A stretch of DNA of 62,121 bases from Pseudomonadota bacterium (GCA_017881315.1 JADGRB010000002.1:1-62121); one strand, 5' to 3'; positions 2,535 through 47,858 are shown, counted from the first letter of the stretch. Numbers and translations: made by a program. The notes: a model not told the origin generated them from the letters alone.

Positions 2535-2852
2535 ATGAAAAGCTTGAAGATTGGGTTGGTCGGGCTGATGCTCTTGGGGTTCACGGGGATGACGGCATCA
2601 GCCGCCCACGCGGCGGTGGTGGTCATTCACGGTCCCCGCGAGGCGCCACCCGAGCCGCGCGAGGAACATTACGGGCCCCGCCACGGGTACATCTGGGTGG
2701 GCGGCCACCATGAGTACCGGCATCGCCACTACCGGTGGTCGCGCGGCCGCTATGAGCACGAGCGCCCCGGATACGAATACGCGCCCGGCCGCTGGGACCG
2801 CCACGAGGATCACTACGACTGGCACGACGGCGAGTGGCACTCCCACCGCTAG
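2535..2852 (+). CDS. small secreted His/Trp/Tyr/Arg-rich protein, paralog 2
   Basis: 105 aa. Signal peptide ends AHA-AVV. The C-terminal 35 residues are nearly identical to paralog 1 (GYEYAPGRWDRHEDHYDWHDGEWH.HR). Confidence 0.75.
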   Translation: MKSLKIGLVGLMLLGFTGMTASAAHAAVVVIHGPREAPPEPREEHYGPRHGYIWVGGHHEYRHRHYRWSRGRYEHERPGYEYAPGRWDRHEDHYDWHDGEWHSHR

Positions 2853-6391: not shown

Positions 6392-7783
6392 TCAGAAGAC
6401 GTTCCGGTTGGTCTTCCGACCGACCACCGTCAAGAGGATGATCTTGAGGTCCCAGAGCAGCGTCCACCGCCGGATGTATTCCAGATCGAACCGGATGCGG
6501 TTCTCCATCCAGCTCACCTCGGGGGTCTCGCCCCGCCAGCCGTTGATCTGCGCCCAGCCGGTGATCCCCGGCTTGACCTTGTGGCGCAGCATGTAGCCCC
6601 GGATCAGCGAGCGGTAGGTCTCGTTGTGAACGACGGCGTGGGGGCGCGGCCCCACGATCGACATCTTGCCGGTGATGACTTGCAAGAACTGGGGCAGCTC
6701 GTCCATCGAGGTCCGACGGAGAAACTTCCCCAGCGGCGTGACGCGCACGTCGTCCTTGGTCGCCTGGGGAACGTCGGGACCGTCCTGCATGACGGTCATG
6801 CTCCGGAACTTGAGCACCCGGATCTCCTTGCCGTTCAACCCATAGCGGCGCTGGCGGAAGAAGACCGGACCCTTGGAGGTCAGCTTGATGGCCACCGCGA
6901 TCACCAGCATCGGGATCGAGATGAGGAGGACGATGAAGGAACCGACCACGATGTCCTCGAGGCGCTTGATCCAGCCGTCGACGCCGACGAAGGGGGTGTC
7001 GTGGACGCTGATGAGCGGGATCTCTCCGATGGTGCTCCAGCGCGCGCTCAGCAGGTTGAACATGAAGAAGTCGGCCACCAGGTAAACGGTGGCGGTGGTG
7101 TTGGAGAGCTCCTGCAGGAGGTGGGCGATGCGCGGCTCCGCCCGCAGCGGCAGCGCGATGTAGACGGCGTCGATCTGGTTGGCGCGACAGGCCTCCAGCA
7201 GATCCGCCGAGCTTCCCGAGAAGGGACACCCGGCATCGGCCAGGTTCTCGCGCCGGTCCGGCCCACGGTCGTCGTAGACCCCGAGCACCCGGATGCCCAG
7301 CCAGGGACGCTCCGCGATCTCCGCGCAGAGCTCGCGCGCGTTGGGGGTGGCGCCCAGGACCACCACCTTGCGGGTGTTTCGCCCCCGCGCCCGCTGCGCG
7401 CGCAGGATCAGCCGCACCAGGATCCGCCAGCCGCACAGCAGGAGCGGCGCCAGCACGAACCATCCGAACGAGGCGACGCGGGAGTAGTCGGCCGAGGTCT
7501 TGGTGGCGACGGCGAAGGTATTGAGGACGAAGACGGTGCTCAGCCAGGCCAGGCAGATCATCCGCAGCTCGACCCGAAACTTCTCGATCCGCCAGGGGCG
7601 ATAGAGGCTGCAGAACTCGGCCGCGATGCTGAACACCAACACGGCGGCCAGCGTCGCGTTACTCGATTCGCGCCGCCAGGGCTGGTGGTACGCGTAGATC
7701 GAGATGACGTGCGCGAGGATGATCCACGCGATGTCCGCCAGACGTTGCAGCCGGTGGATGACGTTTTCGTGTTCGCGAAGCAA
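6392..7783 (-). CDS. undecaprenyl-phosphate hexose-1-phosphate transferase (WbaP/WcaJ-type priming enzyme)
   Basis: 463 aa. N-terminal TM bundle and a central Rossmann-like region. C-terminal bacterial sugar transferase domain (SMDELPQFLQVITGKMSIVGPRPH, KPGITGWAQING). Confidence 0.9.
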   Translation of the reverse strand: MLREHENVIHRLQRLADIAWIILAHVISIYAYHQPWRRESSNATLAAVLVFSIAAEFCSLYRPWRIEKFRVELRMICLAWLSTVFVLNTFAVATKTSADYSRVASFGWFVLAPLLLCGWRILVRLILRAQRARGRNTRKVVVLGATPNARELCAEIAERPWLGIRVLGVYDDRGPDRRENLADAGCPFSGSSADLLEACRANQIDAVYIALPLRAEPRIAHLLQELSNTTATVYLVADFFMFNLLSARWSTIGEIPLISVHDTPFVGVDGWIKRLEDIVVGSFIVLLISIPMLVIAVAIKLTSKGPVFFRQRRYGLNGKEIRVLKFRSMTVMQDGPDVPQATKDDVRVTPLGKFLRRTSMDELPQFLQVITGKMSIVGPRPHAVVHNETYRSLIRGYMLRHKVKPGITGWAQINGWRGETPEVSWMENRIRFDLEYIRRWTLLWDLKIILLTVVGRKTNRNVF

Positions 7784-8000: not shown

Positions 8001-9425
8001 CTATTTCTGACTCTGGGCCAGCCGGGGAATCGGCCGCGTCGTCACGGTGAGCGAAACGTGGACCCAGAGCTGGCGCTGGTGAAAGCTAAAGTCGGGGGTC
8101 GACAGCACCGGCCCACGGTCCGCCCAGAGCCCGCCGACCTCGAGGAACATGTTCTCCGAGACCCGCCGCCGGCCGGACAGGGAGACCGAGAACGCGGTCT
8201 CGTCGAGAGGAATCGGCGGGGGCTGTCCGACGACGGCCGCCTGGAGCGGGGGATCTTTGAGGGCGGTCGCGAAATCGCCGCGCAGGGTGATCGTCCACAG
8301 GGGGATCGCGATCGCCGTCAATCCCGCGCCGGCCTCACCGCGGGGCAGCGCGATGCCGAGGATGGGATCGACGTACAGATCCACCCCGCCCGTGAGGTTG
8401 GACAGCACCGTGATCCCCTCGCGCCGGAAGAGCTGAGAGGTGAGATCGAGAGAGCCGATCGGGGCGGCCGTCGAGCCGGACGATCCGAACGGCGTCATCG
8501 CCCCCGGGGGCGTCGCCAGGGAACGGGCGTAGGTGACCCCCAGGGACAGTCTGAGGCGGTCGAGCGGCGAGATGTGCCTCCTCCAGGTCACGGCGGGCGT
8601 GACGACCAAGAATTCCACGCCGTTGGAGTACGACGCTTCGCCGATGGAGGCGTCGAGGCCGACCCCGTCGCGCGGGGTCAGCGTGAAGAGGGCGCCGGGC
8701 TGGACGGTCACGAAGGTCTGCCCCGTCACCAGCGTCTGCCCGGCCGACGACGTCTGCCCCGCCACCGTCGACGTCGAATCGGGGGCGTTCAAGAACTGCC
8801 AGTGGAAGACCGTCCCGGCCAGGTCCAGCTCCCAGCGCCGGGTCGTCTGGAACTTGACCCGCGCGGCGGCGGTCCCCGAGGCCAGGTTGGCGATGGGCGG
8901 AAGCGCCCCCTGCACGGTGCCCAGCACCAGGGGGAGCGCGGTGTAGTCCGGGCTGCCCACCGATCCGGTCGCGTCCGTCTGGAAGGTGACTCTGGGGGAG
9001 AGCTTGGCGTCGAGGGTGAGGCCGGCCGAGTGCAAGATGAGCGGACCCGAGCTAGAGGTCTGGTTTTGGTTTTGCGAGCGGATCCGCGTCACCGGATCGG
9101 GGGCCAGCAGCTCCGTCGAAAAGCCGGTGATCGGGGCCGGATCCTCCCAGAAGATGCGCGGGCCGTAGAACATCTGGAAGGTGAGGTCGTGCCGGCGCAG
9201 CTCGAGGCCCAGCAGCGGCGTCAGGATCTCGGCCACGAACAGGCGGGGATCCTCCCCGGGTAGCAGGGGCGCTTCGCCGGCGCGCGTTTCGCTGGTCGCG
9301 CTCAGCTGGACGCCAAACGGCCCCAGCCTCAGCGGCGTCTCCCCGAGCCGCGATTGGGTGACCGCGCTCGCCTGGACACCCAGCTCGCCCGAGAAAAGAA
9401 GTAGGGCAACGAACGCCGCGCCCAC
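8001..9425 (-). CDS. predicted outer-membrane beta-barrel protein partnered with the OPX gene
   Basis: 474 aa with a signal peptide. Many alternating hydrophobic/polar strands (RWELDLAGTVFHWQF, RLRLSLGVTYARS, LTAIAIPLWTITLRGDFA, FSVSLSGRRRVSENMFLEVGGLWA). It lies 15 nt downstream of the OPX gene. Confidence 0.5.
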   Translation of the reverse strand: MGAAFVALLLFSGELGVQASAVTQSRLGETPLRLGPFGVQLSATSETRAGEAPLLPGEDPRLFVAEILTPLLGLELRRHDLTFQMFYGPRIFWEDPAPITGFSTELLAPDPVTRIRSQNQNQTSSSGPLILHSAGLTLDAKLSPRVTFQTDATGSVGSPDYTALPLVLGTVQGALPPIANLASGTAAARVKFQTTRRWELDLAGTVFHWQFLNAPDSTSTVAGQTSSAGQTLVTGQTFVTVQPGALFTLTPRDGVGLDASIGEASYSNGVEFLVVTPAVTWRRHISPLDRLRLSLGVTYARSLATPPGAMTPFGSSGSTAAPIGSLDLTSQLFRREGITVLSNLTGGVDLYVDPILGIALPRGEAGAGLTAIAIPLWTITLRGDFATALKDPPLQAAVVGQPPPIPLDETAFSVSLSGRRRVSENMFLEVGGLWADRGPVLSTPDFSFHQRQLWVHVSLTVTTRPIPRLAQSQK

Positions 9426-9440
9426 GGGGATCGCCTGCGC

Positions 9441-10055
9441 CTACTCGGCGACCACGACGTCTCCGTCTTTGAGGCGGAAACTGGTGGCGTGCGGCTCGGC
9501 GGCGGTCAGGTCGCGGGCCTTGAAGCGAATCCGCTGCGACCCCGAGCTGTCGGAACGAATGACGAAGATCTTGTCTCCGTTGGCGAACTCGTTCAGCCAA
9601 CCGGCCGCGGCCAGCGCCGCGAGGACCCCACGGCCGCGCTGCAGCTCGTAGGAGCCGGGCGTGCGAACCTCGCCCACCACGTTGACCCGGACCGACGCGA
9701 TCTTGATGATCGAGACCGTCACCTCGGGCTTGGTCAAGAGATCCTTGAGCCGAGCCTGCAGGTCGGCCGCGACCACCTCGGTGGTCTTGCCCGCCACGCT
9801 GATGGTCCCCAGCGTCGGTTGCAGGTATTCGCCGTGATCGCCGACGGGGAATTCCCCCGAGAGCGCGGTCTGGTTCCGAACCGAGACCAAGATGGTGTCC
9901 CGGTTCTCGATGGTCCCCCGGCTGCTGTCGTCGCCGGCCGGCAGGTTCTCGACCCAGGTGTAGGGACGCTCGGTGGTGGCGCATCCCAGCGCCGAGACCA
10001 GGGCCAGGCCCGCGGCCCAGCGGAGGCTGGCCATATGCTTGGTCGGGGATCGCAT
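9441..10055 (-). CDS. polysaccharide export lipoprotein, short OPX (Poly_export + one SLBB-like domain)
   Basis: 204 aa from the ATG at 10055. Lipobox LVSALGC. Other blocks: ILVSVRNQTALSGEFPVGDHGEYLQPTLGTISVAGKT, VNVVGEVRTPGSYEL, KDGDVVVAE. The ATG overlaps the upstream stop (ATGA). Confidence 0.85.
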   Translation of the reverse strand: MRSPTKHMASLRWAAGLALVSALGCATTERPYTWVENLPAGDDSSRGTIENRDTILVSVRNQTALSGEFPVGDHGEYLQPTLGTISVAGKTTEVVAADLQARLKDLLTKPEVTVSIIKIASVRVNVVGEVRTPGSYELQRGRGVLAALAAAGWLNEFANGDKIFVIRSDSSGSQRIRFKARDLTAAEPHATSFRLKDGDVVVAE

Positions 10056-12052
10056 CAGAACCGATCGCGCCTGCGATCGCGCGTCGAGGTCGCCCGGGAC
10101 ACCACCGTGGCCCCCAGGGTCTGGGAGATCAGACGCCGCGCTTCGCGCAAGACGATCACGATCGACGCGAGCAGCAGCCCGAACAGCAGTCCCAGGCCGC
10201 CGCGCAGCCCGAGGGTGTTCCACTTCTTGGCCCGGTCGAGCCGGGGCGGGGTCAGATCGTAGCGAGACTCCGCCGAGACCTTCTCGAGGTTCAGCTGAAT
10301 CTCGGCCTGCTTCAACTTCGTGAAGAGATCTCCGTGCAGCTGCTTGGTGGAGTCCTGCTTGTGATCGAGCTCGGACAGATGCTGCTCCACCCGGGGCAGA
10401 TCCTGCACGACCCGACGGACCTGACCGAGGCTGCCATCGGTCTCGCCCAGGCTGGCGCGGGCCGCCGCCAGCTCCGCTTGCAGCTTCTCGACCCGACTCT
10501 GAGCCTGCTGATAGTTGGGGTCCGATTCGCGCATCGCGGTCGGCGTCGCCGTCTGCATCTCTTCCTGGGCGAGCGCCTGAACGCGCTGCTTCTCGTCCTT
10601 GAGCTGCTGAACCTCCGGGTGGCCGTCCTTGAGGCCGCGGGCGTACGCTTCGCTCAATTTCTTGTCGATCTCCGTCAAGGACTGTCGGTACGACTCGGAC
10701 CACTGAAATTTCCTCTGGGCCTCGGGCCGGTTACTCTTGAGCTGGCCGAGCTCGGCGTTCAGCTCCCCCTGCAGCTGGTGAACCTGAGCCGAGAGCGTGG
10801 CCCGGCGAGTCTCCAGCTCGAACCGGCTGCTGTGGGTCAGCTCGGAGTCCTCCGGCAGCCGGTCGGCGTTGGCCTCCCGAAAGCCGGCGCGCTGATCGCT
10901 GATGTGCTCCAGATCCTTCTCGACCGACTTCAGCTGATCGCGGAGGAAGTCGACCTTGGCGGAGAGCTCGCGCAACGACTTGCCGATCTCCCACTGGATG
11001 TAGTTCTGCAGGTGGAGGGTCAGGAATTCCAGCGGCGGTGGCCGAGAGTTGGCCTTGTCCTTGTAGGTGGCGCGGAACACGTGATCGCCCGTCTCCTCTA
11101 CCTTTAGTTTGCCCATCACCGCACCAATTTGGCCCTCGACGGGATCGTGTCCGTAGAGCGTCCGCAGCGTAGTCCGGATGAGATCGCGCTGGAGGAGCGC
11201 GCGCTCCGCCCCTTTGACGAATTGAAACGAATCCTGATCGATGTTTTGCCAGCGATCCTCGGCCTGGGGGGCGGACAAGGTCATGTGGGGCAAGAGCTTG
11301 ATCTCGCCGACCGCCGCGACGCCGGGAGGCGACACCAGGATCGAGAGGATCCCCAGCGTGAGGCCGACCGCCGCGAAGGCGGCGATGATCAGCCGGCGGT
11401 CGCGCACGAACCCGTAGACCGCCGCGATCTTGCGGACGATGTCCGCGAGCGACGGCTCTTCTTCGACCCTCGGTTGCGCCGGGTAGGCGTGCGCCGGCGA
11501 CGCCGACATCCTGGGGACGATCATGGGCGGTCTGGTCGTGACCAGCGCCGTGCTCCGTCCGGTCGCCACCCGCTTGAAGGAGTCGGGCAACCGGACCGTC
11601 GCGTTGGTAGGACGGTCGAGCAGAAACAGGAATTCCACGCTGCCGATCGTCACATGATCGCTGTTGCGCAACCCCGACCGCGTGACCCGCTTTCCGCCCA
11701 CGAACGTCCCGTTGGTCGAGTCGAGATCGACGATCTCGAAGCCTTCGGCGCGGTGGATGATCCGCGCGTGGTTCTGGGACACCGAGCCATCGGGGACCTT
11801 CACGTCCGCGTCGTCGGCGCGACCGATGAGGATGACGTTGCGCTTGAGCGCGTAGATCCGCCCCGGCTGATTGCCGGTGAACAGAACGACGTAAGCCAGC
11901 GCCTCGCCCGAGGTCACCGCCCGTTCCAGCTCAGCATCGAGACCCGCGCCCGATGCTGGTGGGTCCCTACCGTCCGCCGCCCGCTCCCAGGCCATGTTGG
12001 TGAAATCGCATAGCTTACCGACGGGCAATATAACACCGGGTACCGGGTGCAT
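10055..12052 (-). CDS. FHA domain fused to a polysaccharide co-polymerase (Wzc/PCP-like) lacking a kinase domain
   Basis: About 665 aa. FHA hallmarks are LIGR, SQNH and STNGT. These are followed by TM1 (LIIAAFAAVGLTLGILSILV), a long coiled-coil-rich periplasmic region, TM2 (GLLFGLLLASIVIVL) and a 30-aa tail. No Walker A. The start is ambiguous (TTG 12055, ATG 12052, ATG 11995). Confidence 0.8.
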   Translation of the reverse strand: MHPVPGVILPVGKLCDFTNMAWERAADGRDPPASGAGLDAELERAVTSGEALAYVVLFTGNQPGRIYALKRNVILIGRADDADVKVPDGSVSQNHARIIHRAEGFEIVDLDSTNGTFVGGKRVTRSGLRNSDHVTIGSVEFLFLLDRPTNATVRLPDSFKRVATGRSTALVTTRPPMIVPRMSASPAHAYPAQPRVEEEPSLADIVRKIAAVYGFVRDRRLIIAAFAAVGLTLGILSILVSPPGVAAVGEIKLLPHMTLSAPQAEDRWQNIDQDSFQFVKGAERALLQRDLIRTTLRTLYGHDPVEGQIGAVMGKLKVEETGDHVFRATYKDKANSRPPPLEFLTLHLQNYIQWEIGKSLRELSAKVDFLRDQLKSVEKDLEHISDQRAGFREANADRLPEDSELTHSSRFELETRRATLSAQVHQLQGELNAELGQLKSNRPEAQRKFQWSESYRQSLTEIDKKLSEAYARGLKDGHPEVQQLKDEKQRVQALAQEEMQTATPTAMRESDPNYQQAQSRVEKLQAELAAARASLGETDGSLGQVRRVVQDLPRVEQHLSELDHKQDSTKQLHGDLFTKLKQAEIQLNLEKVSAESRYDLTPPRLDRAKKWNTLGLRGGLGLLFGLLLASIVIVLREARRLISQTLGATVVSRATSTRDRRRDRF

Positions 12053-12105
12053 CAACGGACCCTGGTGCTGTTTTATTTTCTAGTTTTATCCACTACCCAC
12101 CTCGC

Positions 12106-12140
12106 CACCTATTCAGCTATTCCACCTATTCACCTATTCA
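12106..12140 (-). promoter_or_regulatory. three direct repeats of CACCTATTCA (plus-strand spelling) upstream of the FHA-PCP gene
   Basis: Copies at 12106-12115, 12123-12132 and 12131-12140. They straddle the kinase stop codon and are followed on the minus strand by an AT-rich stretch (12066-12090). Confidence 0.3.
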
Positions 12141-13807
12141 CCTTGGCGGCGGGCCGACGCCTCCAACCCAATCTTGGCGCTTTGGCCACTCTTGCCAATC
12201 TTACGGTGCTGGGCGATCCCGAGGGTGATCACCAGCGCCAGCATCGCCAGCGACGCCCAGAGCAGGAGCGACCGGCCCCCGCTCCCCTTGAGCCAATGCT
12301 TGGCCACCCCCAGGCTCCTCCCGAGCCGGCGCTTGGCCACCCCCAGGCTTCCCTCGAGCCAGCGCTTCGCCACCACGGAAGGGGGAACCCGCTCCGGGAC
12401 GATCAGAATGGTCTTCGAGAATTTTTTCTCGGTGGGGGCGGGCGCCGCGCTGATCACCACCGTGGGGTGCGCGCCCGACGTCGGCGCCGAGACCGCTTCG
12501 GCAACCGCGGCGTCCATCCGGCGGCGGCGCTCGATATCCGCGTCGATGACCTCGCGGCGCATGTATTCGCCGACCGCCGCGGGCGAGACCAGGAGATCGT
12601 TCTCGACGCCGATCCGGAGCAGGGTCTGCGCCATCTCGCCGGCGCTGGCCGGCCGCCCTTGCCGATCGCGGCTCAACGCCCGCAGGCAGATCTGGTCCAG
12701 ACAGGCCGGGGCCCCGAAGGCGCTGGGCGGCTCGATCTCCTTGCGCAGCACGTTCGCGATGATCTGATCATGATCTTCGGCGGCGAACAGCTCGCGGCCG
12801 GCCAGCGCGGTCCACATCATGGTGCCCACCGCGAAGAGGTCGGTGCGGGCATCGAGCGGTTCGAGCAGGACCTGCTCGGGCGCCATGTAGGCCGGCTTGC
12901 CCAGCGTCATCGGATCGGGCGTCCCGGTCTCGCCGAGGCCGGTGAAGCGCGCGCTGCCGAAGTCGGTCAGGCGCGCGACGCCGTCGGTGCCCACCAGCAC
13001 GTTGGGCGCCGAGACATCGCCGTGGACCAGCCCCAGCCACCTCCCTTCTTCGTCGGTGATCTCGTGCGCGCGCTGCAGCCCGCGCAGCACGTCGATCAGG
13101 ATCGAGAGCAGCACGCCGGGCGGGACGCGCCGACCGAAGGAGATCTCCTCCAGGCTGGTCCCCTCGATGTACTGGAGCACCAGGTAGGGTTGGTTCTTGT
13201 ACATGCCGACGTCGACGAGCGACTGCATGTTGGGGTGGTCGAGCAGCACGCCCACCCGGATCTCACGCAGGAAGGATTTCTCGGCCACCTGCTCCTGCCC
13301 GGATCCCTGACGGATGACCTTGAGCGCGAACAGACGTCTGAACCCGGCCGCGCCGGTCCGACGGCAGACGTACACGGAGCCCATCCCCCCCTGGCCGAGC
13401 CGCGAGGCGACCTCGTAGGGCCCCACCCGGAAGAACGGCTCGCCGCTGGTGCCCCGGATGGTGACCTCGGCGGTCTCGACGGGAACCAGCATCCGCCGGT
13501 TGCACAGCGACCGCAGGTGTTGCGCGGTCGCTTCTTCGGACAGGCCAGCCAGCCGCGCCAGTCGCGACACCGAAAGACGCCCGTCCACCAGACCCAGCAG
13601 CAGCCGTTCCTCCGCGCGCATGCCCGGCAACACGACCGTGCCGCCCGCGACTGCCAACCCCGCGGGAAGCTCGCGTCCTCCCTCCGCGACGGCGGGATCG
13701 GCCCGCGAGATCACCCGGGGCGCGAGCGTGAAGACCGTGGTCCGTCGGATCACGAGCCCGTGCGGTTCAGTCTCGCCCGGGCGCTGCGGGTCTGGCGGCA
13801 CTACCAT
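12134..13807 (-). CDS. Hanks-type Ser/Thr protein kinase, membrane-anchored
   Basis: 557 aa. Motifs: LGQGGMGSVY, FALKVIR, catalytic loop VHGDVSAPN (variant of HRDxKxxN), LTDFGSA, YMAPEQ. C-terminal TM is SLLLWASLAMLALVITLGIA. Confidence 0.9.
   Translation of the reverse strand: MVVPPDPQRPGETEPHGLVIRRTTVFTLAPRVISRADPAVAEGGRELPAGLAVAGGTVVLPGMRAEERLLLGLVDGRLSVSRLARLAGLSEEATAQHLRSLCNRRMLVPVETAEVTIRGTSGEPFFRVGPYEVASRLGQGGMGSVYVCRRTGAAGFRRLFALKVIRQGSGQEQVAEKSFLREIRVGVLLDHPNMQSLVDVGMYKNQPYLVLQYIEGTSLEEISFGRRVPPGVLLSILIDVLRGLQRAHEITDEEGRWLGLVHGDVSAPNVLVGTDGVARLTDFGSARFTGLGETGTPDPMTLGKPAYMAPEQVLLEPLDARTDLFAVGTMMWTALAGRELFAAEDHDQIIANVLRKEIEPPSAFGAPACLDQICLRALSRDRQGRPASAGEMAQTLLRIGVENDLLVSPAAVGEYMRREVIDADIERRRRMDAAVAEAVSAPTSGAHPTVVISAAPAPTEKKFSKTILIVPERVPPSVVAKRWLEGSLGVAKRRLGRSLGVAKHWLKGSGGRSLLLWASLAMLALVITLGIAQHRKIGKSGQSAKIGLEASARRQGE
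12293..12391. repeat. 33-nt tandem repeat (about 2.5-3 copies) inside the kinase gene
   Basis: Units are ccaatgcttggccacccccaggctcctcccgag, ccggcgcttggccacccccaggcttccctcgag and a degenerate third. They encode VAKRWLEGSLG / VAKRRLGRSLG / VAKHWLKGSGG just before the TM segment. Confidence 0.8.
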
Positions 13808-20279: not shown

Positions 20280-21698
20280 ATGGATCAATACAGCCTCATA
20301 GCCCGGATCTTTCTGGGCCTGTCGATCCCTCTGTCGATCGGGCTCTTCCTCTTCATGCGTCCGCAGCGCGCGGCGCTCGTCATCGTCCTCGGATGCGACA
20401 TGTTCCTTCCCGAGCTGGTGGACTTCAAATTTCCATTCATGCCGCCGCTCACGAAGCAGAACCTGCCTTACCTGTGCATCCTCATCGGGTGCCTCCTGCG
20501 GCGGCGCGCTCGGCTGCTCAAATTTCCGAGGGAGCGCTGGTTCCAGATCCTGACGGTCATGCTCATCGTGGGGGCGACGCTCACCGGGGTCTTGAACGGG
20601 GACCCCATCGTGGTGAAGAAGAATCTCCCCCCGATCGTGGGCCTGGGCATCAAGGACGGGCTGTACCTGGCCGCCTTGAATCTCAGTCAGGTCTCGCTGC
20701 CCTTCTTTCTCGGATGTGCGCTGTTCCGGACCGTCGAGAACTTCCGCACCCTCTTGCTGGGGTTCGCGCTCGCCGTCGTCTGCTACATCCCGTTCGCGTT
20801 GTTCGAGATCCGATTCAGCCCCGTGCTGCATTTCCAGTTTTACGGCTACGGCCAACACGACTACTTCCAGACCCTCCGGGCGGGCGGATTCCGTCCCATG
20901 GCGTTCATGGCCAACGGACTGGCGCTGGCGCGATTCTTGGTCGTGGGCCTTTGCGCGTCGTTCATACTCGGTCGCGCCAAGCGCAAGATTTACGGCCTGC
21001 CCGCGTATCTCGTTGGATCGGTCATCTTTGTCACGTTGGTCCTCTGCAAGAGCATGGGGGCGCTCGCGTTCGCGTTCGTCGCCATTCCGCTGCTCATGTG
21101 GGGTGGCCCCAGGCTGCATCTGCGAATCGCATTGGCTCTGGCTTCGTTCGTCTTTCTGTATCCGGTGCTGCGCACGACGGGGCTCTTGCCCACCGACACG
21201 ATCCTGGACGCGTCGACCGCGATCTTCGGGGCGGACCGGGCCGAATCGCTTGGATTCAGATTCAAGAATGAAAACATGTTGCTCGACAAGGCACGGCAAC
21301 GAATCGTTTTCGGGTGGGGCCAGTACGGCCGCAACTTCGTCGTCGACAAGGCGGACAACATTGCGATCCCCGACGGTTATTGGGTGATCCAGATCGGGCT
21401 GGTTGGCGTGTTTGGCTTCATTACCACCTTTGGCCCTTTGCTCATTCCGATCTTCTTGACCCGGAAACGAATCAAGCTCATCCTCGCGCCCGCCGACCGA
21501 AGGTTGGTTGGGGGCATGACGTTGATCATCGGACTGATAGCGCTCGATTGGGTGCCGAATGGTCTCTTTAGCCCCTATCCCTACCTCCTCGCCGGCGCCC
21601 TCACCGGATTGACGCGCGAGCTGATGTCTGCCAGGCCCGAGGCGGCCTACCAGCAGGAATACCTGCCGCAGCAGCGGGATTTTTTGGTGAGCTCTTGA
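20280..21698 (+). CDS. Wzy-like polymerase / O-antigen-ligase-like membrane protein
   Basis: 472 aa with about 10-12 hydrophobic segments. It is the only polymerase candidate in the locus. Confidence 0.6.
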   Translation: MDQYSLIARIFLGLSIPLSIGLFLFMRPQRAALVIVLGCDMFLPELVDFKFPFMPPLTKQNLPYLCILIGCLLRRRARLLKFPRERWFQILTVMLIVGATLTGVLNGDPIVVKKNLPPIVGLGIKDGLYLAALNLSQVSLPFFLGCALFRTVENFRTLLLGFALAVVCYIPFALFEIRFSPVLHFQFYGYGQHDYFQTLRAGGFRPMAFMANGLALARFLVVGLCASFILGRAKRKIYGLPAYLVGSVIFVTLVLCKSMGALAFAFVAIPLLMWGGPRLHLRIALALASFVFLYPVLRTTGLLPTDTILDASTAIFGADRAESLGFRFKNENMLLDKARQRIVFGWGQYGRNFVVDKADNIAIPDGYWVIQIGLVGVFGFITTFGPLLIPIFLTRKRIKLILAPADRRLVGGMTLIIGLIALDWVPNGLFSPYPYLLAGALTGLTRELMSARPEAAYQQEYLPQQRDFLVSS

Positions 21699-37979: not shown

Positions 37980-39500
37980 CTATCGGGCGACGGAGCGGCG
38001 GGCCGCGAGCTTGTACGATCCCAACCAGAGCGCGGACAGAACGGCGAAGATGGCGGCCCCTTCGACGAAGGCATCCAGGTGGACGTTGGCGATCGGCAGG
38101 TGCAGCTGCCGGTAGCCGGTTCGCACCAGGAGCCCCAGCCCGACCGTGAGCGCGATACCGACCGAAAATCGAAAATCCTGCTGCACGGGACGGAGCCCGA
38201 ACCGGATGCAGGCCTGGGCCGACACCGCGTAACGGACCAGCTCAGACAACGAGAGCGCGAGGATGGCGGCAGAAAATCCGAACAGTCGCGCGCCGATGGG
38301 GAGGAGAACCAGCATTCCGATCAGCTTGGCGGCGTTGCCGAAGGCCAACCATTTGGGCTTGCCCAGCGCCAGCAGGGCGTAGCTGTTGGTGCTCTCGCAG
38401 GCGGCGACCCAGGACCCGATGGCGAGCAGCGGAACGATCAGGCCCGCTTCGGCGGCGCGCCGATCGTAGAGAAAACGGATCAGCGTCGGACCGCCCGCCA
38501 TCAGGCACGCGAAGAGCCACCCGGCCGCAAAGAGCAGCGGCCGGCGCACCTCGCGGAACGAATCGGGCACCGAGCCACCCTGTTCATTCACCCGGCTGAA
38601 CAGCGGGAACAGCACGGTGTTCGACAGATGGCTGATGATGAAGCTGGGGAAGGTCGCCCAGACCAGCGCGATGCTGTAGACGCCCAGCCGGTCTATCGAT
38701 ACCAGCTTTCCGAAGATGAGCCGGTCGGAGTACGAGGCCAAGAACGTGAGGATCGTGCTCAAGAAGATCCAGCGGCCGAAGTGGGATACGGCCCGGACGG
38801 TGTCTCGATCCCAGGCGAACCAATTCCGAATTCCCGGCAGGATCTTGAAGCTGAGCACCAGTCGAATGAGCGGCGAAACGACGGAGCCGACTGCGAGCCC
38901 CCATACCGAATGGGTGTAGTAGCTCCAAACGATCATCACAACGAGACTTCCGCATTGGCTCACGATATCCACCAACGTCAGACGCTTGATGGCGAGCCGC
39001 CGGCTGGCGGTGAAGAGATTGGTCGAGTTGAACGCGCTGACGCCGAAGCCGAGCGCCACCAGAGGGACCAGCTTGGCGAGCGAGGGCTGGTGATAGAACC
39101 GCGCGACCGGAATGGCGGCGATGCAGGCCAGGAAGCAGATCGCCAGCCCGCGCAGGATCTGGAGCGTCCAGATCGTGTTGAGGAACTTCGGATCTTCCCC
39201 CCGCTCGTGCTGCACGACGCTCTGCCCGATCCCGATGTCGGAGAACATGGCCAGCCCCTGGATGAACACGTTCACGATGGCCATCAGCCCGAACGCGTCC
39301 GGGTACAGCAGTCGCCAGAGAATGAAGTTGCTGCCGAGCCGGAGCGAGTATCCGACGGCGTAATTGACGAGCGCCCAGGCCGACCCGCGCGCGAACAACT
39401 TCTTGAACGCGCGCTCCTCCGCGGCCTTCACGGCCCCGACGGAAGGTGCGGCAGGCAGGGCCGCGGGCTCGGGCGCGGAAGGAACGCTCGGGTCGCTCAA
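37980..39500 (-). CDS. Wzx-type oligosaccharide flippase (MOP superfamily)
   Basis: 506 aa with about 12-14 TM segments. N-terminal AWALVNYAVGYSLRLGSNFILWRLLYPDAFGLMAIV. Confidence 0.8.
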   Translation of the reverse strand: MSDPSVPSAPEPAALPAAPSVGAVKAAEERAFKKLFARGSAWALVNYAVGYSLRLGSNFILWRLLYPDAFGLMAIVNVFIQGLAMFSDIGIGQSVVQHERGEDPKFLNTIWTLQILRGLAICFLACIAAIPVARFYHQPSLAKLVPLVALGFGVSAFNSTNLFTASRRLAIKRLTLVDIVSQCGSLVVMIVWSYYTHSVWGLAVGSVVSPLIRLVLSFKILPGIRNWFAWDRDTVRAVSHFGRWIFLSTILTFLASYSDRLIFGKLVSIDRLGVYSIALVWATFPSFIISHLSNTVLFPLFSRVNEQGGSVPDSFREVRRPLLFAAGWLFACLMAGGPTLIRFLYDRRAAEAGLIVPLLAIGSWVAACESTNSYALLALGKPKWLAFGNAAKLIGMLVLLPIGARLFGFSAAILALSLSELVRYAVSAQACIRFGLRPVQQDFRFSVGIALTVGLGLLVRTGYRQLHLPIANVHLDAFVEGAAIFAVLSALWLGSYKLAARRSVAR

Positions 39501-40465: not shown

Positions 40466-41644
40466 TCAGAGCGGGGGCAGCGGCGGCAAAGGTGGATTGC
40501 TCGGCTCGAGCTGCATCAGCTTGCGCTCGACGATCTCCTGGATGACGACCTGAGGATGAATCCGGTCGATCGGCTCCACGGCGAATTCGTCCTGCCACAA
40601 GTAGAGGCCGGTCCCGAAGCTCTCGGCCAGCCAGGGGAGCAGGCTGCTGAAGAACGAGTCGCGGAACACCACGACCGCCGGAAGATCCGTTCCGCGCGCC
40701 GAGACGGCGACGGGCCTGACGTCGTCCTGCTCCACGGCCGCCAGGCCCAGCGGCCTTGTGGGCGTGAGGTCCAGCCGCCGTTCCCGAAAGACATCCCGGA
40801 TGCCGATCTGTCTGGTCAGATCCATCCCCTCGGTGTCCCGCTCGGTGCGCTCGAAGCGATCCCAGGGCAAGGCGGTCGCGCCCGACACGGAGGCCGGCAC
40901 GGCCGCCATGATCGCCCGGTACGCCCGGAACGCGCCGCGATCGTTCCAGTGCGTGTCGGTCTTGTGGTAGAGGCGCTCCTCGCCCTTCGCCGCCGTCAAG
41001 ACGCCGCGCAGATCGACCAGGCGAACGTCGGAGTGACCCCGCAGGTAGGTCACCAGCTGGTCGAGTCGGGACTCCGGCGCCACCTGCGTCAACAGCTCCG
41101 GCATCATCTCGCCGTAGATCGTCTCCTTGTTGGGGGCGACGACGAAGAGATAGGCGGCGCCCCGCGCGGCCAGCCAGTTCCGCCGCGCCTCCAGGACCTG
41201 CCGCCACCGTTCGAGCTCGGCCGGGGTGAACAGCTCGGTGTGGCGGTAATAGTCTGTGGAGCGTTCATTCGCCAGGAACAGCCAGCCCTCCTTACCTCGG
41301 GTGACGTCGGGATTGGGGAGGACCCCCAGCAGGCGCAGGCAGAGGAGCCCATGCAGGCGGATGAGCGTGTCGCGAAAGCCGAAATGGTCGGCGAAGTAGT
41401 AGCGGAAGGTCCCCGGGAACGACGCGAGCTCGCGGGGCCGGAGCACCAGGCGCGGTCGCTCGGCGAGATGGCGATTCTCCGACAGCTTCGGACCGCGATC
41501 GAGGTGCAGGATCATGGACCCGAGCGGCGTCGCCAGCGCGAGCAAGAACAGCAGCACCCGGATCGTGTCGCGCCTCCGGTGGCCGGCGGAACTGGCGCCC
41601 GGCGGGAGCGAATGCGACAGCGGAGTGTAGGTGGCTGCGACCAC
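40466..41644 (-). CDS. AlgJ/AlgX-like periplasmic SGNH-type O-acetyltransferase
   Basis: N-terminal membrane anchor. LYHKTDTHWNDRGAFRAY (D-x-H-W motif). It lies 4 nt downstream of the MBOAT gene. Confidence 0.7.
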   Translation of the reverse strand: MVAATYTPLSHSLPPGASSAGHRRRDTIRVLLFLLALATPLGSMILHLDRGPKLSENRHLAERPRLVLRPRELASFPGTFRYYFADHFGFRDTLIRLHGLLCLRLLGVLPNPDVTRGKEGWLFLANERSTDYYRHTELFTPAELERWRQVLEARRNWLAARGAAYLFVVAPNKETIYGEMMPELLTQVAPESRLDQLVTYLRGHSDVRLVDLRGVLTAAKGEERLYHKTDTHWNDRGAFRAYRAIMAAVPASVSGATALPWDRFERTERDTEGMDLTRQIGIRDVFRERRLDLTPTRPLGLAAVEQDDVRPVAVSARGTDLPAVVVFRDSFFSSLLPWLAESFGTGLYLWQDEFAVEPIDRIHPQVVIQEIVERKLMQLEPSNPPLPPLPPL

Positions 41645-41648
41645 GGGC

Positions 41649-43109
41649 CTAGAACCTGAAATAGATGAACGGGCTGTAAGTTCCGGCCGCCGACAACATG
41701 GCCGACAGGAAGAAGACCACCGCCAGGCAGGCCAATCCCCCGGCCTCCGCCGTCGCCACCAGGAGCGCGCGCCCGCCGCCGGACGCGGACAGCGTGGGCG
41801 CGAGCCGCCGGCTCACCGCGCTCGCCAACCCGGGGAGGAGCGGCGCGGCCCCGATCACGCCAGCGATGAGCGCGAGGGTGAGCCGCGGATCGGCATAGAG
41901 GGCCGGGAAGTACTCTCGCCCGCTCGCGCCCGACAGCCCCGCCATCGCCCGCAGGACGCCCAGCGCCCGCGTCAGGGTGTCGGCCCGGAAGAACACCCAG
42001 CCGACCAGGATCACGACCAGCGCGTAGGCGTGCCGCACAAACGACGGGCAGCGCAGCAGGAGACGGCCGAGGCCCACGCGTTCCAGGATCAAGAAAGCGC
42101 CGTGGAAGAGGCCCCACACCACGAACGCCCAGCTCGCCCCGTGCCACAGCCCGCACAGGAAGAACACCACCAGCAGGTTGCGGTAGGTGCGGGCGGCGCC
42201 GGCCCGATTACCGCCGAGGGGCACGTAGAGGTAGTCGCGGAACCAGCCCGACAGCGTCATGTGCCAGCGCCGCCAGAACTCGGTGATGGAGGCCGCGGCG
42301 TACGGATAGTTGAAGTTCTCCGGGAACACGAAGCCGAACATGCGCCCGATGCCGATGGCCATGTCGGAGTAGCCGGAGAAGTCGAAGTAGATCTGGATCG
42401 CGTAACAGACGACGGCCAGCCAGGCGACGCTGGAGGTCAGCGAGCCGGTCGGCGCCGCGAAGATCTGGTCTGTTACCCGCGCGACCGTATTGGCGATCAG
42501 CATCTTCTTGCCGAACCCCAGCACGAAACGCCGCACCCCCTCCGAGAAAGCGGAAAGCGTTTCCCGGCGACCCTCGAATTGGTCCGCAATCAGCTTGTAA
42601 CGAATGATCGGTCCCGCAATGAGCTGGGGGAACAGGGTGATGTAGAGCGAAAAGCTGGCCAGGCCGCGCATGGCCCGCACCTCGCGCCGGTAGATGTCGA
42701 TCAGATAGCTGAGCGCGTGGAACGTGAAGAACGAGATGCCGACCGGGAGATGGAGATCGGGCACCGCCAACGTCGGCCCGGAAACCAGGGCGAGCCCCTT
42801 GTTGAGGTTGATGACGATGAAGTCGGCGTACTTGAAGACCGCGAGACCGTCCAGATTGACGGCGATCCCCGCGATCAGCAGCAGCCGGCGCGCCCGCACG
42901 CTCCGGGGGCGGTCCAGCGCCAGCCCCATCCCGTAGTTGAACAGGATGGACGCCACCATCACCAGGACGAAGAACTGCTCGCCGACGGCGTAGAAATACA
43001 GGCTGCCGACCAGCAGCACCAGGTTCCGCAGCGAGCGCGGCGCCAGATAATAGAGCGCCAGCACCACCGGCAGGAACAGAAATAGAAAACTAGGCTCGGT
43101 GAAGAGCAT
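41649..43109 (-). CDS. MBOAT-family membrane O-acyltransferase (AlgI/DltB-like)
   Basis: Blocks: MLFTEPSFLFLFLPVVL, FDFSGYSDMAIG, FWRRWHMTLSGWFRDYLY, CGLWHGASWAFVVWGLFHG. Confidence 0.9.
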   Translation of the reverse strand: MLFTEPSFLFLFLPVVLALYYLAPRSLRNLVLLVGSLYFYAVGEQFFVLVMVASILFNYGMGLALDRPRSVRARRLLLIAGIAVNLDGLAVFKYADFIVINLNKGLALVSGPTLAVPDLHLPVGISFFTFHALSYLIDIYRREVRAMRGLASFSLYITLFPQLIAGPIIRYKLIADQFEGRRETLSAFSEGVRRFVLGFGKKMLIANTVARVTDQIFAAPTGSLTSSVAWLAVVCYAIQIYFDFSGYSDMAIGIGRMFGFVFPENFNYPYAAASITEFWRRWHMTLSGWFRDYLYVPLGGNRAGAARTYRNLLVVFFLCGLWHGASWAFVVWGLFHGAFLILERVGLGRLLLRCPSFVRHAYALVVILVGWVFFRADTLTRALGVLRAMAGLSGASGREYFPALYADPRLTLALIAGVIGAAPLLPGLASAVSRRLAPTLSASGGGRALLVATAEAGGLACLAVVFFLSAMLSAAGTYSPFIYFRF

Positions 43110-45782: not shown

Positions 45783-45812
45783 TTGACGGCAAATTCCCGA
45801 CTGCGGTAGTGT
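45783..45812 (+). promoter_or_regulatory. sigma70-like promoter candidate TTGACG-N18-TAGTGT, would give a leaderless transcript
   Basis: -35 at 45783-45788 and -10 at 45807-45812. The ATG at 45820 is 8 nt after the -10. Sits in a conspicuously AT-rich intergenic region. Confidence 0.35.
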
Positions 45813-46821
45813 GCGCCCCATGGCAACGACGTTGGGTCAGGAGTTTGGGATCAGGCGGGTGTACGACGCGACGCCGAAAAAGGGCGCTGGCGTTTCGCTG
45901 CGGTTGAGCGATCGACAGGTGGAGCTGGGGACCCGCGAATTCGACCTTTACGAGAAGGTCTCGGAGCGCGTTCCGGGCATTCGATCGCAAAAGGAAGTCG
46001 CGGCCGAGCTCGGAATGGACCAGGCGGGGCTCGGGCGGCTGCTCGCGGCGCTGCAGAGCGCGGGTCTCGTTTATCGCGCCGACGCCGTTCCGGCGACGTT
46101 GAGCGGCATCGAGCTTCACACGCTTTTCAACAAGATCCTGCCGAGCTGGCTCGACGAGGCGTTCTCGCATCCGTTCTGGGAGCGGATGACCAGCGGCAAA
46201 GGATCGCGCCGGATGTACTCCGGTTGGCTCATCGAGCTCTACCACTACACGCGCAACGCCAACCGGCACATGCCGCTCTCCTGCGCCTACGCGCACGAGA
46301 AGGCCATCAAGAACATGCGCGCCAAGCACTACGCCGAGGAGTGGAACCACTACCATTACTTCCTCAAGGCGCTCAAGGCGCTGGGCTTCTCCGAGGACAG
46401 CGTCATCAAGTCGGTGCCGCTGCCGATGTCGCTGGCCCTCTCGAACTTCATGCGCCAGGCGGCGCGCGACGACATCCTCGCGTACTCGATCTGCTCGGCG
46501 GTTCTGGAAGGCACGACCGTCGACCGCGGCGCCTACAACCCCTACTACGAGACCTGCGCGAAGCTCTACGACCTTCCGGCGGAGTCCATCGCGCCGATCT
46601 ATGCGCACCTCGATCTGGATGTGCAGTACCAGCACTCGGATCTCTTCCTGGACATCCTCGGCAAGGTCGATTCGATTCCGGCCGCCCGGGCGGGTCACAT
46701 TCTCGACTATGGCCACCAGCTGATCGAGCACATCTGGCTCTGGACGGACAGCATCGAGAAGTATTACGGCGTGGAGTCGAATCCGATGCCCCGTCCGGCG
46801 TTTAGCAAGTTGCTCGACTAG
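45811..46821 (+). CDS. PqqD/RRE-like winged-helix domain fused to a heme-oxygenase-like (PqqC/TenA/diiron oxidase-type) domain, paralog 1
   Basis: 336 aa (333 if ATG 45820). Shared blocks with paralog 2: HPFWER, LIELYHY, HYAEEWNH (ExxH), AHLDLDVQYQH (H-x3-D-x4-H). Confidence 0.7.
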   Translation: MRPMATTLGQEFGIRRVYDATPKKGAGVSLRLSDRQVELGTREFDLYEKVSERVPGIRSQKEVAAELGMDQAGLGRLLAALQSAGLVYRADAVPATLSGIELHTLFNKILPSWLDEAFSHPFWERMTSGKGSRRMYSGWLIELYHYTRNANRHMPLSCAYAHEKAIKNMRAKHYAEEWNHYHYFLKALKALGFSEDSVIKSVPLPMSLALSNFMRQAARDDILAYSICSAVLEGTTVDRGAYNPYYETCAKLYDLPAESIAPIYAHLDLDVQYQHSDLFLDILGKVDSIPAARAGHILDYGHQLIEHIWLWTDSIEKYYGVESNPMPRPAFSKLLD

Positions 46822-46856
46822 TCAGCGATGTCAGCGATAACGCGGGGAGAAGCCTG

Positions 46857-47858
46857 ATGGAAATGCAGCATCCAGTCCTCAAGCGCACGGCCAAGGTCGT
46901 GCATGGCAAGAACGACAAGCTCGCCATCCAGTACATGGGTCAGGAGGTGACCCTGGAAGGCGCCGCCGCGAAGCTCTTCGACAAGATGCTGCCGTTCCTC
47001 GATGGCAACACCGGCATCGGCGGGATCGCCGAGCGCATCTCGGAGTCGCCCAAGCGGCTGCAGTCGCTGACCCAGCAGCTCGGCAAGACCGGCGTGCTGG
47101 GCTTCAAGGACGCCGACAACGGCGAGCGCATCACCGGCGAGCAGTTCTACGAGATCCATCGGACCTACGTGAACGACTGGCTGCAGCCGATCTACGATCA
47201 CCCCTTCTGGGAGAGGGTCGTGACCGGCAAGGCGACGCGCGCCCAGGTGCTGGGGTTCGCCTTCGAGAAGTACCACTACATCGAGGGCGCCTTCGAGCAC
47301 ATGGCCATCGCGGCGGCCAACGCGACGCCCGAGATGATGCCGCACCTGGCCCGCCACTTCATCGAGGAGTACAACCACGGTGACATCTACCGGAAGGGGC
47401 TGCAGAGCCTGTTCCCCAACGACCTCATCCTGCGCGCCCAGCCGCTCCCCAGCACGCGCGCGCTGGTCAACTTCCTCAGCGAGTCGGCGGCCCGCAACTC
47501 GTTCGGGTACTACGCGGGGAACGAGCTCCTGCAGATGACCGAGAACACCGGCGAAGACACGGACAACGACTCGATCAACGACTTCTACGATGCGATGCGG
47601 AAGCACTATCCGTACACCGACAAGGTGATCGACGCTTTCATCGCCCACACCAACGCCGACCAGAAGCTGGGACACGAGAACGTCTTCCTCGAGATGTGCC
47701 AGAGCATTCCGCCGCTCACCCGGACCGAGGTGGACGACGCGCTCAACATCGTGCGCTCGATGGCCGAGCACCTCTACCTGTTCATGGACGGCATCGACAC
47801 CTTCTACGCCCGCTTCCCGACGATCCCGCGCGCCCCCTGCGACCTGCTTTCCGAGTAG
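46857..47858 (+). CDS. PqqD/RRE-like winged-helix domain fused to a heme-oxygenase-like domain, paralog 2
   Basis: 333 aa. Blocks: HPFWER, FEKYHY, HFIEEYNH, AHTNADQKLGH. The N-terminus has a beta3-alpha3 pattern ending LTQQLGKTGVLGF. Confidence 0.7.
   Translation: MEMQHPVLKRTAKVVHGKNDKLAIQYMGQEVTLEGAAAKLFDKMLPFLDGNTGIGGIAERISESPKRLQSLTQQLGKTGVLGFKDADNGERITGEQFYEIHRTYVNDWLQPIYDHPFWERVVTGKATRAQVLGFAFEKYHYIEGAFEHMAIAAANATPEMMPHLARHFIEEYNHGDIYRKGLQSLFPNDLILRAQPLPSTRALVNFLSESAARNSFGYYAGNELLQMTENTGEDTDNDSINDFYDAMRKHYPYTDKVIDAFIAHTNADQKLGHENVFLEMCQSIPPLTRTEVDDALNIVRSMAEHLYLFMDGIDTFYARFPTIPRAPCDLLSE

Follow-up and report, generated by a model that had tools for sequence, protein, structure and literature searches.

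A central open question in the biology of capsules and exopolysaccharides is how class 2 polysaccharide co-polymerases (PCP-2) couple cytoplasmic signals to polymerization and export. In the accepted model, the co-polymerase (PCP) is controlled by phosphorylation cycles of a bacterial tyrosine kinase (BY-kinase, BYK); the chain-length determinant of family TIGR03007 pairs with a stand-alone tyrosine autokinase. In the forkhead-associated (FHA) domain systems Rv1747/PknF and GarA/OdhI with PknB/PknG, activity or self-association is switched when the FHA domain binds phosphothreonine (pThr) in cis or in trans. The FHA domain of Rv1747 lies beside a disordered linker bearing pThr sites, and the cognate Hanks-type kinase PknF is encoded adjacent to it. 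A phosphorylation-independent pseudokinase variant of PCP-2 control was added in 2025 (PMC12004946). The partner of the BYK-less PCP EpsV of Myxococcus xanthus is EcpK, a BY pseudokinase without Walker motifs, which is not encoded beside epsV and binds the 25-residue Arg-containing C-terminal extension of EpsV (PMC12004946). For both Wzc and EpsV, the oligomeric state is thought to be what the BY-kinase or pseudokinase controls (PMC12004946). Here, we describe a PCP fused to an FHA domain, and the Hanks-type kinase encoded next to it, in a 62,121-nucleotide stretch of DNA deposited as Pseudomonadota bacterium (GCA_017881315.1 JADGRB010000002.1:1-62121), hereafter the window.

Three genes follow each other in the same direction on the minus strand, and all elements that the original prediction had described in them are found: the Hanks-type kinase (12134-13807), the FHA-fused PCP (FHA-PCP; 10055-11995), and a protein of the outer-membrane polysaccharide export family (OPX; 9441-10055). 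This arrangement is best explained if the three genes encode the core for regulation and export in a Wzx/Wzy-dependent exopolysaccharide cluster from an uncultured Polyangia (Myxococcota) bacterium. We consider it fairly probable, from the domains, motifs, and gene order described below, that the function of the PCP is coupled to Thr phosphorylation by the adjoining kinase.

The FHA domain spans residues 34-124 of the PCP (11624-11896, minus strand) and matches PF00498 with an E-value of 3.3e-16 (59.9 bits, against a gathering cutoff of 20.7). Profile searches of the PDB match it to GarA, Rv1747, and FhaA (E 1e-18 to 1e-14), and Foldseek with the model of the PCP matches it to GarA, Rv1747, FhaA, and DgcB. 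The residues that contact pThr, Arg59, Ser73, His76, and Asn95, are invariant in 69 of 69 sequences, as are Gly58, Ser71, Ser93, Thr94, and Gly96. The proposal of a canonical FHA domain at the N-terminus is thus borne out by a positive PF00498 search and by the retention of every pThr-contacting residue. The domain is predicted to be a canonical phosphothreonine reader, with Thr133 of the PCP itself and Thr466 of the kinase as candidate ligands.

Thr133 lies in the cytoplasmic N-terminus of the PCP, which comprises ~200 residues. Nine residues past the FHA domain, within a linker that the AlphaFold2 (AF2) model shows as disordered (residues 129-180), the motif P-T-N-A-T133-V-R-L-P (11585-11608, minus strand) is a candidate phospho-acceptor and FHA ligand. 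The threonine is present in all 69 sequences, always followed by I/V/M at position +1 and L/V/I at +3, and Pro137 is kept in 47 of the 69, giving the pattern A-T133-[IV]-x-[LVI]-P. Similar T-Phi-x-Phi motifs are found past the FHA domain in many distant family members.

The second candidate site is located in the kinase, near the membrane, in the motif F-S-K-T466-I-L-I-(V)-P-E-R (12389-12421, minus strand), a putative autophosphorylation and FHA-docking site. This segment is also predicted to be disordered (residues 445-475, with a predicted local distance difference test score, pLDDT, below 50). Across homologs, the motif reads [FL]-A-[QRK]-T466-Phi-Phi-[IL]-P, with Thr in 61 of 62 sequences, a hydrophobic residue at +1 in 60, I/L/V at +3 in 57, and the following Pro in 57. 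Both motifs stand out from linkers that are otherwise variable and of low pLDDT. Bacterial FHA domains prefer pT-x-x-[I/L/V], and the sequences around Thr133 and Thr466 fit this ligand preference.

The kinase is a predicted tail-anchored protein of 557 residues (12134-13807, minus strand) that matches Pkinase (E 2.4e-30) and, under its equivalog cutoff, the PknB_PASTA_kin model (E 8e-47). Its AF2 model, built with 62 homologs (pLDDT 78.7), consists of a winged-helix-like segment (residues 62-110), the kinase domain (126-402), a helix (409-440), the disordered segment, a further helix, and a transmembrane helix (TMH; 511-539). The top Foldseek match in the PDB is PknB from Mycobacterium tuberculosis (5u94; TM-score 0.87, rmsd 2.2 Å); the leading matches also include the complex of PknB with GarA (6i2p). 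The membrane anchor announced for this kinase corresponds to the C-terminal TMH (12191-12277, minus strand), which precedes an 18-residue tail and has a hydrophobic counterpart at the same position in orthologs; the motifs GQGGMGSVY, ALKVIR, HGDVSAPN, DFG, and APE are all present in the translation. Within the catalytic domain (12602-13432, minus strand), Lys163, Glu182, Asp264, Asn269, and D282-F-G are invariant in the 62 homologs. Together with the Pkinase match and the PknB-like fold of the model, these catalytic residues identify the protein as a putative Hanks-type Ser/Thr kinase.

The catalytic loop, H262-G-D-V-S266-A-P-N269 (13004-13027), does not match the canonical HRDLKPxN. Homologs share the form H-[GA]-D-V-S-P-x-N, in which Ser266 replaces the canonical Lys in 62 of 62 sequences and the Arg of HRD is also missing; with G/A/C/S at position 263, the kinase is of the non-RD kind. 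The loop resembles those of the RIO/Bud32 type. Upstream of the catalytic domain, the winged-helix-like segment (13478-13624, minus strand) is modeled as helices 65-73, 80-87, and 91-103 and a strand at 107-109, with pLDDT of 83-95. It gives weak helix-turn-helix matches, is annotated as HTH_5 in relatives, is conserved among orthologs, and is preceded by a conserved RTTVLT strand. This domain may be the sensory or dimerization input of a kinase that is almost devoid of a periplasmic part.

Two repeats were observed in the kinase gene or across its end. An in-frame tandem repeat of 33 nt x 2.8 (12281-12374) encodes LGVAKRWLEGS-like units in the helix preceding the TMH; it is specific to the source organism and missing from a 75%-identical ortholog (locus L001). 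In 12106-12143, the kinase stop codon is spanned by repeats of 8 nt in tandem (CACCTATT x 4.6, plus strand) and by sequence unusually rich in AT. Neither is found in related loci, and they could represent a regulator binding site or replication slippage.

Downstream of the kinase, the PCP (10055-11995, minus strand) has 646 residues; its identification as a PCP draws on TIGR03007 and Foldseek matches to Wzc. The AF2 model from 69 sequences (pLDDT 77.4) places TMH 1 at residues 201-221 (11333-11395), a periplasmic domain of 373 residues at 222-594 (10214-11332), TMH 2 at 595-616 (10148-10213), and a cytoplasmic C-terminal extension at 617-646 (10058-10147), all on the minus strand. The model concurs with the topology proposed earlier, a periplasmic region of ~370 residues between two TMHs and a tail of 30 residues. 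The periplasmic domain combines an alpha/beta base with very long helices over residues 225-588, individual helices reaching 84 residues, and Arg598, Gly602, and Gly606 of TMH 2 are invariant. The tail is basic and contains no Tyr; across homologs it averages 27 residues and 0.13 Tyr, with Glu618 invariant and Arg620 and Arg621 being R/K in ~90%. No P-loop domain was found in the PCP, in line with the reported lack of Walker A/B motifs and of a Tyr-rich tail.

Residues 286-578 match TIGR03007, the XrtA-system chain-length determinant, with an E-value of 4.2e-22. The score of 78 bits is far under the equivalog cutoff of 279 bits, so the PCP is a relative of this family and not a member. In Foldseek searches of the PDB, Escherichia coli Wzc and Wza-Wzc complexes come first (E 6.8e-9 to 2.5e-5; 9r68_I at 6.8e-9, and 7nhr), and WzzE follows behind Wzc along with the FHA domains. 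Sequence-profile searches of the PDB with the PCP part yield only marginal matches (PslE, 0.024; Wzc, 0.64). The Pfam families Wzz (PF02706) and GNVR (PF13807), for which a search had been suggested, give no match in the PCP at E<=0.01 and are recorded on none of the 120 homologs listed. Many homologs are labeled by JGI pipelines as 'FHA protein / uncharacterized protein involved in exopolysaccharide biosynthesis'. From TIGR03007, Foldseek, topology, and gene context, we conclude that the middle gene encodes a predicted PCP-2-like co-polymerase without a tyrosine-kinase domain.

The FHA-PCP is represented by 221 database clusters at E<=1e-3. In contigs from one genome per GTDB species, 14 loci encode full-length relatives, all in metagenome-assembled genomes (MAGs) labeled Polyangia or 'Myxococcales', and metagenome contigs contribute 73 further loci. 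The names met are those of MAGs from Polyangia, Myxococcales, and Deltaproteobacteria, and in one case (P0091/P0375) an uncertain MAG label, 'Bacteroidota'. A HMMER search with the PCP part alone against 1.84 billion representatives returned 113 clusters at E<=1e-30. When the database was searched again with a diverse profile (A3), the matches came from this close family and from no cultured organism, so the wider taxonomic range of the FHA-PCP is poorly defined. With a local FHA model, an N-terminal FHA domain was detected in ~95 of 104 full-length representatives of the PCP clade, down to 23% identity, and the fusion is, judging from the sequences, ancient.

Synteny with the kinase in relatives had been set beforehand as a check on which the reading could fail. 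The reading withstands this check: a kinase ortholog is encoded upstream on the same strand in all 12 genome loci with sufficient flank and, where metagenome loci extend 4 kb or more upstream, in 18 of 20, which gives 30 of 32 informative loci. At this frequency, chance adjacency of the kinase and the FHA-PCP was rejected. Reverse look-up from kinase homologs led to FHA-PCP/OPX loci in two of three cases (P0320 and P0400). The third (P0410, 48% identity) neighbors a phosphoglycosyl transferase (PGT) gene, and the 8 kb that follow the kinase encode no FHA-PCP. Members at 27-32% identity lie in clusters with a short OPX, a barrel candidate, and a PGT; in one of them a kinase gene lies 3.4 kb upstream, and another is the kinase-less locus L083 described below. 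Of the members examined, the most distant (P0260, 23% identity) is located outside any polysaccharide cluster.

The original prediction had noted that the 62 kb encode no BY-kinase and no Wzb or PHP phosphatase. Pfam scans of the 51 genes, called from an open reading frame (ORF) listing and codon-position G+C, reveal no BY-kinase-type P-loop, low-molecular-weight protein tyrosine phosphatase, PHP, or PP2C domain. In agreement with this, tblastn with the BYK domain of E. coli K-12 Wzc and with Wzb gave no match better than E 0.02 in the window or within 6-10 kb in ~95 related loci, and no member of the FHA-PCP family carries a fused BYK. Members of ~840-850 residues had been considered as possible BY-kinase fusions; they are single ORFs joining PCP and OPX. 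These searches are insensitive to pseudokinases without Walker motifs, and with respect to an EcpK-like partner the negative result is therefore weak evidence.

These observations suggest a mechanism in which the kinase would autophosphorylate Thr466 in its juxtamembrane linker, and phosphorylated Thr466 would recruit the PCP via its FHA domain, docking it on the kinase. The kinase would next phosphorylate Thr133 of the PCP. Binding of the FHA domain to this residue, within one protomer or between neighbors in the PCP ring, would then set the oligomeric state of the PCP, which in turn would govern polymerization and the hand-over to the short OPX and an outer-membrane barrel. The scheme is drawn by analogy with PknB/GarA and PknF/Rv1747, and all of its phosphorylation and binding events, like the consequence for oligomerization, are inferred. 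Of the earlier proposal that polymerization and export are coupled to a eukaryotic-like kinase, the domains, motifs, and gene order stand as evidence, and these individual steps are its conjectural part.

The proposal went further and had a pThr/FHA switch replace the Tyr switch. The fusion, the intact FHA domain, the synteny with the kinase, and the lack of a nearby BYK speak for it; replacement as such goes beyond them, because an EcpK-like BY pseudokinase could be encoded outside the window. Its premise, that PCP-2 proteins need Tyr phosphorylation, is the accepted model, to which published exceptions exist in Myxococcota. With BYK-independent PCP-2 proteins known in the phylum, the missing BY-kinase is less surprising, and the coupling of FHA domain and kinase is the new part. 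That Thr phosphorylation fully replaces a BY-kinase or pseudokinase seems to us rather unlikely. A related and equally tentative idea is that the FHA-PCPs are an old and large Myxococcota family that functions without any BY-kinase or pseudokinase, with phosphorylated Thr133 being read by the FHA domain of the neighboring protomer, thereby making or breaking a cytoplasmic ring. If true, this would be a pThr/FHA analog of the ring formed by the Tyr-rich tail and active site in Wzc, and a further PCP-2 subfamily with its own signaling logic.

Several observations weigh against control of the PCP by the adjoining kinase, beginning with the region between the two genes. The PCP starts at the ATG at 11995, a position conserved in the alignment of homologs. 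The PCP is consequently 646 residues long plus stop, and 138 nt separate its gene from that of the kinase, where ~665 residues and 78 nt had been predicted. A start at the TTG/ATG at 12055/12052 was rejected, as it coincides with the -35 hexamer of a promoter and the homologs start at 11995. This sigma-70-like promoter (12027-12055, minus strand), identified by a consensus scan, has the form TTGATG-17-TATATT with an extended -10 TG and would serve the genes for the FHA-PCP, the OPX, and the barrel candidate. At least 10 related loci have an equivalent, TTGA..N17..TGnTAnAnT, in the corresponding place. The conserved promoter indicates that the PCP and OPX genes have a promoter of their own and that the PCP is not strictly co-transcribed with the kinase.

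Further points on the same side concern the kinase, its distribution, and its partners. With the loop Lys (Ser266 in 62 of 62) and the HRD Arg missing, kinase activity is not to be assumed. Myxobacteria encode many kinases, and cross-talk is possible. No PP2C or other phosphatase gene is found in the window by Pfam. All organisms with an FHA-PCP are known as MAGs or metagenome contigs. The two exceptions to synteny are L111, where the flank is too short, and L128/P0120, a close relative truly without a kinase within 10 kb. Some distant members are kinase-less as well. Locus L083 (P0177) encodes a distant FHA-PCP of 883 residues in an M. xanthus eps-like order of PGT, OPX, barrel candidate, and single-domain response regulator, with no kinase within 10 kb. 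This gene set suggests that the FHA-PCP may be wired to different upstream signals in different lineages. Finally, the conserved basic tail of the PCP may bind a BY pseudokinase that escaped detection.

This last point leads to an alternative in which the FHA domain and the kinase are an added input, nothing is replaced, and the PCP still needs a BY-kinase or pseudokinase from elsewhere acting on its C-terminal extension. We regard this as possible, if on balance doubtful. The FHA-PCP is a BYK-less PCP with a short conserved tail, as in the EpsV/EcpK and HfsA/HfsB type; this tail of 27-30 residues keeps the invariant Glu618 and the conserved Arg620/Arg621, reminiscent of the Arg-containing 25-residue EpsV tail that EcpK binds without Walker motifs (PMC12004946), and neither Pfam nor tblastn with the Wzc BYK is sensitive to such pseudokinases. 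However, although the 62-kb window appears to hold the whole polysaccharide cluster, no called gene in it has a P-loop or Rossmann-like BYK signature, and none was found within 6-10 kb in the ~95 related loci. The retention of the 200-residue FHA module in ~95 of 104 clade representatives also marks it as core rather than accessory.

An altogether different target is improbable in our view, namely that the kinase mainly controls another step, such as the PGT, and that the FHA domain docks the PCP onto the PGT or another phosphoprotein. The PGT gene does lie between the kinase and the FHA-PCP in L006, L007, L010, and L161, the kinase homolog P0410 is found beside a PGT in the absence of an FHA-PCP within 8 kb downstream, and M. 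xanthus offers a precedent for regulation at the PGT step (PMC12802240). Yet the best-conserved motifs of the FHA-ligand type sit in the linkers of the kinase and the PCP, and the kinase gene adjoins that of the FHA-PCP far more consistently than that of the PGT. Least probable, to the point that we give it very little weight, is that the FHA fold acts as a scaffold independently of phosphorylation, like the cytoplasmic parts of YscD/PrgH of the type III secretion system (T3SS), and that the kinase is unrelated to it. The Pfam model Yop-YscD_cpl scores as well as the FHA model (E 1.6e-16), but the pThr-contact residues GR, SxxH, and TNG are invariant in the 69 sequences, which argues against a YscD-like role. 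The closest solved structures are the pThr-binding FHA domains of GarA, Rv1747, FhaA, and DgcB, and the synteny in 30 of 32 loci would be left aside by an unrelated kinase. Coupling of the PCP to the adjoining kinase through Thr phosphorylation is the reading we retain.

The start codon of the OPX gene overlaps the stop codon of the PCP gene, as predicted, with one base in common (TGATG). The OPX (9441-10055, minus strand) is a short D1D2-type lipoprotein of 204 residues that comprises just two domains, Poly_export (E 1e-11) and SLBB (E 8e-11), and is encoded downstream of the FHA-PCP in nearly all loci. It matches the model of M. xanthus EpsY with an E-value of 3.3e-39 (134 bits, against a cutoff of 320) and also the XrtA-system exporter TIGR03027. 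In several independent clusters (P0062, P0129, P0137, P0138, P0266), PCP and OPX form a single ORF of ~665-850 residues. Errors in sequencing or assembly may have removed the TGATG overlap there; otherwise they are true PCP-OPX fusions, whose OPX signal peptide would serve as a third TMH.

Short D1D2 OPX proteins are paired with an outer-membrane barrel (PMC9601211). Next to the OPX gene, the window encodes a conserved secreted protein of 474 residues with an N-terminal signal-like sequence (8001-9425, minus strand), a candidate EpsX-like outer-membrane beta-barrel that has no match in Pfam or NCBIfam. A counterpart of ~450 residues is encoded directly past the OPX in nearly all related loci. 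By analogy, this product probably forms an 18-stranded barrel of the EpsX type in the outer membrane, as part of a composite translocon, and the short OPX probably needs it as such.

The G+C content of the window is 66-70%. The FHA-PCP sits inside a 38-kb polysaccharide cluster with a WcaJ-type PGT, a Wzx flippase, and many glycosyl- and acyltransferases, and is thus encoded together with an adjoining OPX, a PGT, and a Wzx, the Wzy being a candidate only. The initiating, WcaJ-like PGT (6392-7783, minus strand) matches TIGR03023 over its cutoff (E 3.7e-157) and contains Bac_transf and CoA_binding_3; in some relatives its gene is placed between those of the kinase and the FHA-PCP. The Wzx-type flippase (37980-39500, minus strand) matches Polysacc_synt_3 (E 2.2e-52) and a MOP flippase model (E 2.3e-35). 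The putative Wzy polymerase, a protein of 472 residues with multiple TMHs (20280-21698, plus strand), has no family match and is kept in several related clusters.

Other genes of the window deserve mention. At 40466-43109 (minus strand), the Wzx/Wzy-type cluster pairs an AlgX-like SGNH protein with an MBOAT (AlgI-like) O-acyltransferase, suggesting periplasmic O-acetylation of the polymer. At 45811-47858 (plus strand), two adjoining paralogs of the haem-oxygenase-like/TENA-family of di-iron proteins are followed by a 195-residue protein without matches and an AMP-binding enzyme. Two small paralogous secreted proteins rich in His, Trp, and Arg (1379-1741 and 2535-2852, plus strand) contain WXXGXW repeats (GYVWVGGHH...WDRHEDHYDWHDGEWH).

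Full-text literature searches found no paper on an FHA-fused co-polymerase, consistent with the earlier statement that its author knew of no characterized fusion of this kind. The sole paper containing both 'FHA domain' and 'Wzz', on the Lipocone, treats them in separate contexts and does not concern an FHA-PCP. Both COGs are already assigned to the same proteins in automatic annotations, so the architecture is visible in databases, though uncharacterized. New is the FHA reader with its cognate Hanks kinase, BYK-independent PCP-2 proteins having already been published for the phylum. The carriers are soil myxobacteria known from metagenomes only, and the FHA domain on their PCP, beside a Ser/Thr kinase of its own, suggests an undescribed on/off control of polysaccharide secretion. 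After the BY-kinase cycles and the pseudokinase variant, the FHA-PCP family would be a third logic of PCP-2 control, with a eukaryotic-like Ser/Thr kinase as the writer, the PCP-fused FHA domain as the reader, and candidate sites, Thr133 and Thr466, that are directly mutable. It would tie the very large kinase repertoire of myxobacteria to a concrete envelope output. If the mechanism holds, the family would also be a natural test of whether control of the PCP oligomeric state matters, rather than tyrosine phosphorylation as such.

Compared with known systems, the FHA-PCP shares with E. coli Wzc/Wzb/Wza the two-TMH PCP with a large helical periplasmic domain, the top structural match, the OPX neighbor within a Wzx/Wzy cluster, and a cytoplasmic phospho-signaling module. 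In the FHA-PCP this module is an N-terminal FHA reader, whereas Wzc carries a P-loop kinase and a Tyr-rich tail at its C-terminus. Here, a separate Hanks-type protein is the kinase, no phosphatase is encoded nearby, the OPX is of the short D1D2 type in contrast to the full-length Wza, and sequence similarity to Wzc is marginal. With EpsV/EcpK and EpsY/EpsX of M. xanthus, the system shares the phylum, a BYK-less PCP-2 with extra-long periplasmic helices, and a short basic C-terminal extension (PMC12004946, PMC9601211). As in the eps cluster, an EpsY-like OPX is followed by a ~450-residue protein, and a WcaJ/EpsZ-type PGT belongs to the cluster. EpsV (507 residues), however, has a 37-residue N-terminus without an FHA domain and a 25-residue tail with two Arg, where the FHA-PCP has an N-terminus of ~200 residues. 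The partner of EpsV is a BY pseudokinase with no Hanks kinase implicated, whereas neither the window nor the related loci yielded an EcpK-like gene. In the PCP-2b systems (Staphylococcus aureus CapA/CapB; XrtA/PEP-CTERM, TIGR03007), PCP and signaling enzyme are also separate proteins encoded side by side, and the periplasmic part of the FHA-PCP has its best curated sequence match in TIGR03007; the neighboring enzyme is here a Hanks Ser/Thr kinase and not a BY-kinase.

The FHA domains of M. tuberculosis Rv1747 and GarA are the closest solved homologs of that of the FHA-PCP. Rv1747 and GarA/OdhI, from Actinobacteria, have an ABC transporter or a metabolic inhibitor as effector, whereas it is here a polysaccharide co-polymerase. 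Two secretion machines that span the envelope, the Pseudomonas aeruginosa type VI secretion system (Fha1/PpkA/PppA) and the T3SS (YscD/PrgH), also have an FHA-fold module on their cytoplasmic side. Control of Fha1 by a membrane Hanks kinase is likewise what we propose for the FHA-PCP, although the machines differ. YscD-type domains, in turn, lack the pThr-binding residues, which are invariant in the FHA-PCP.

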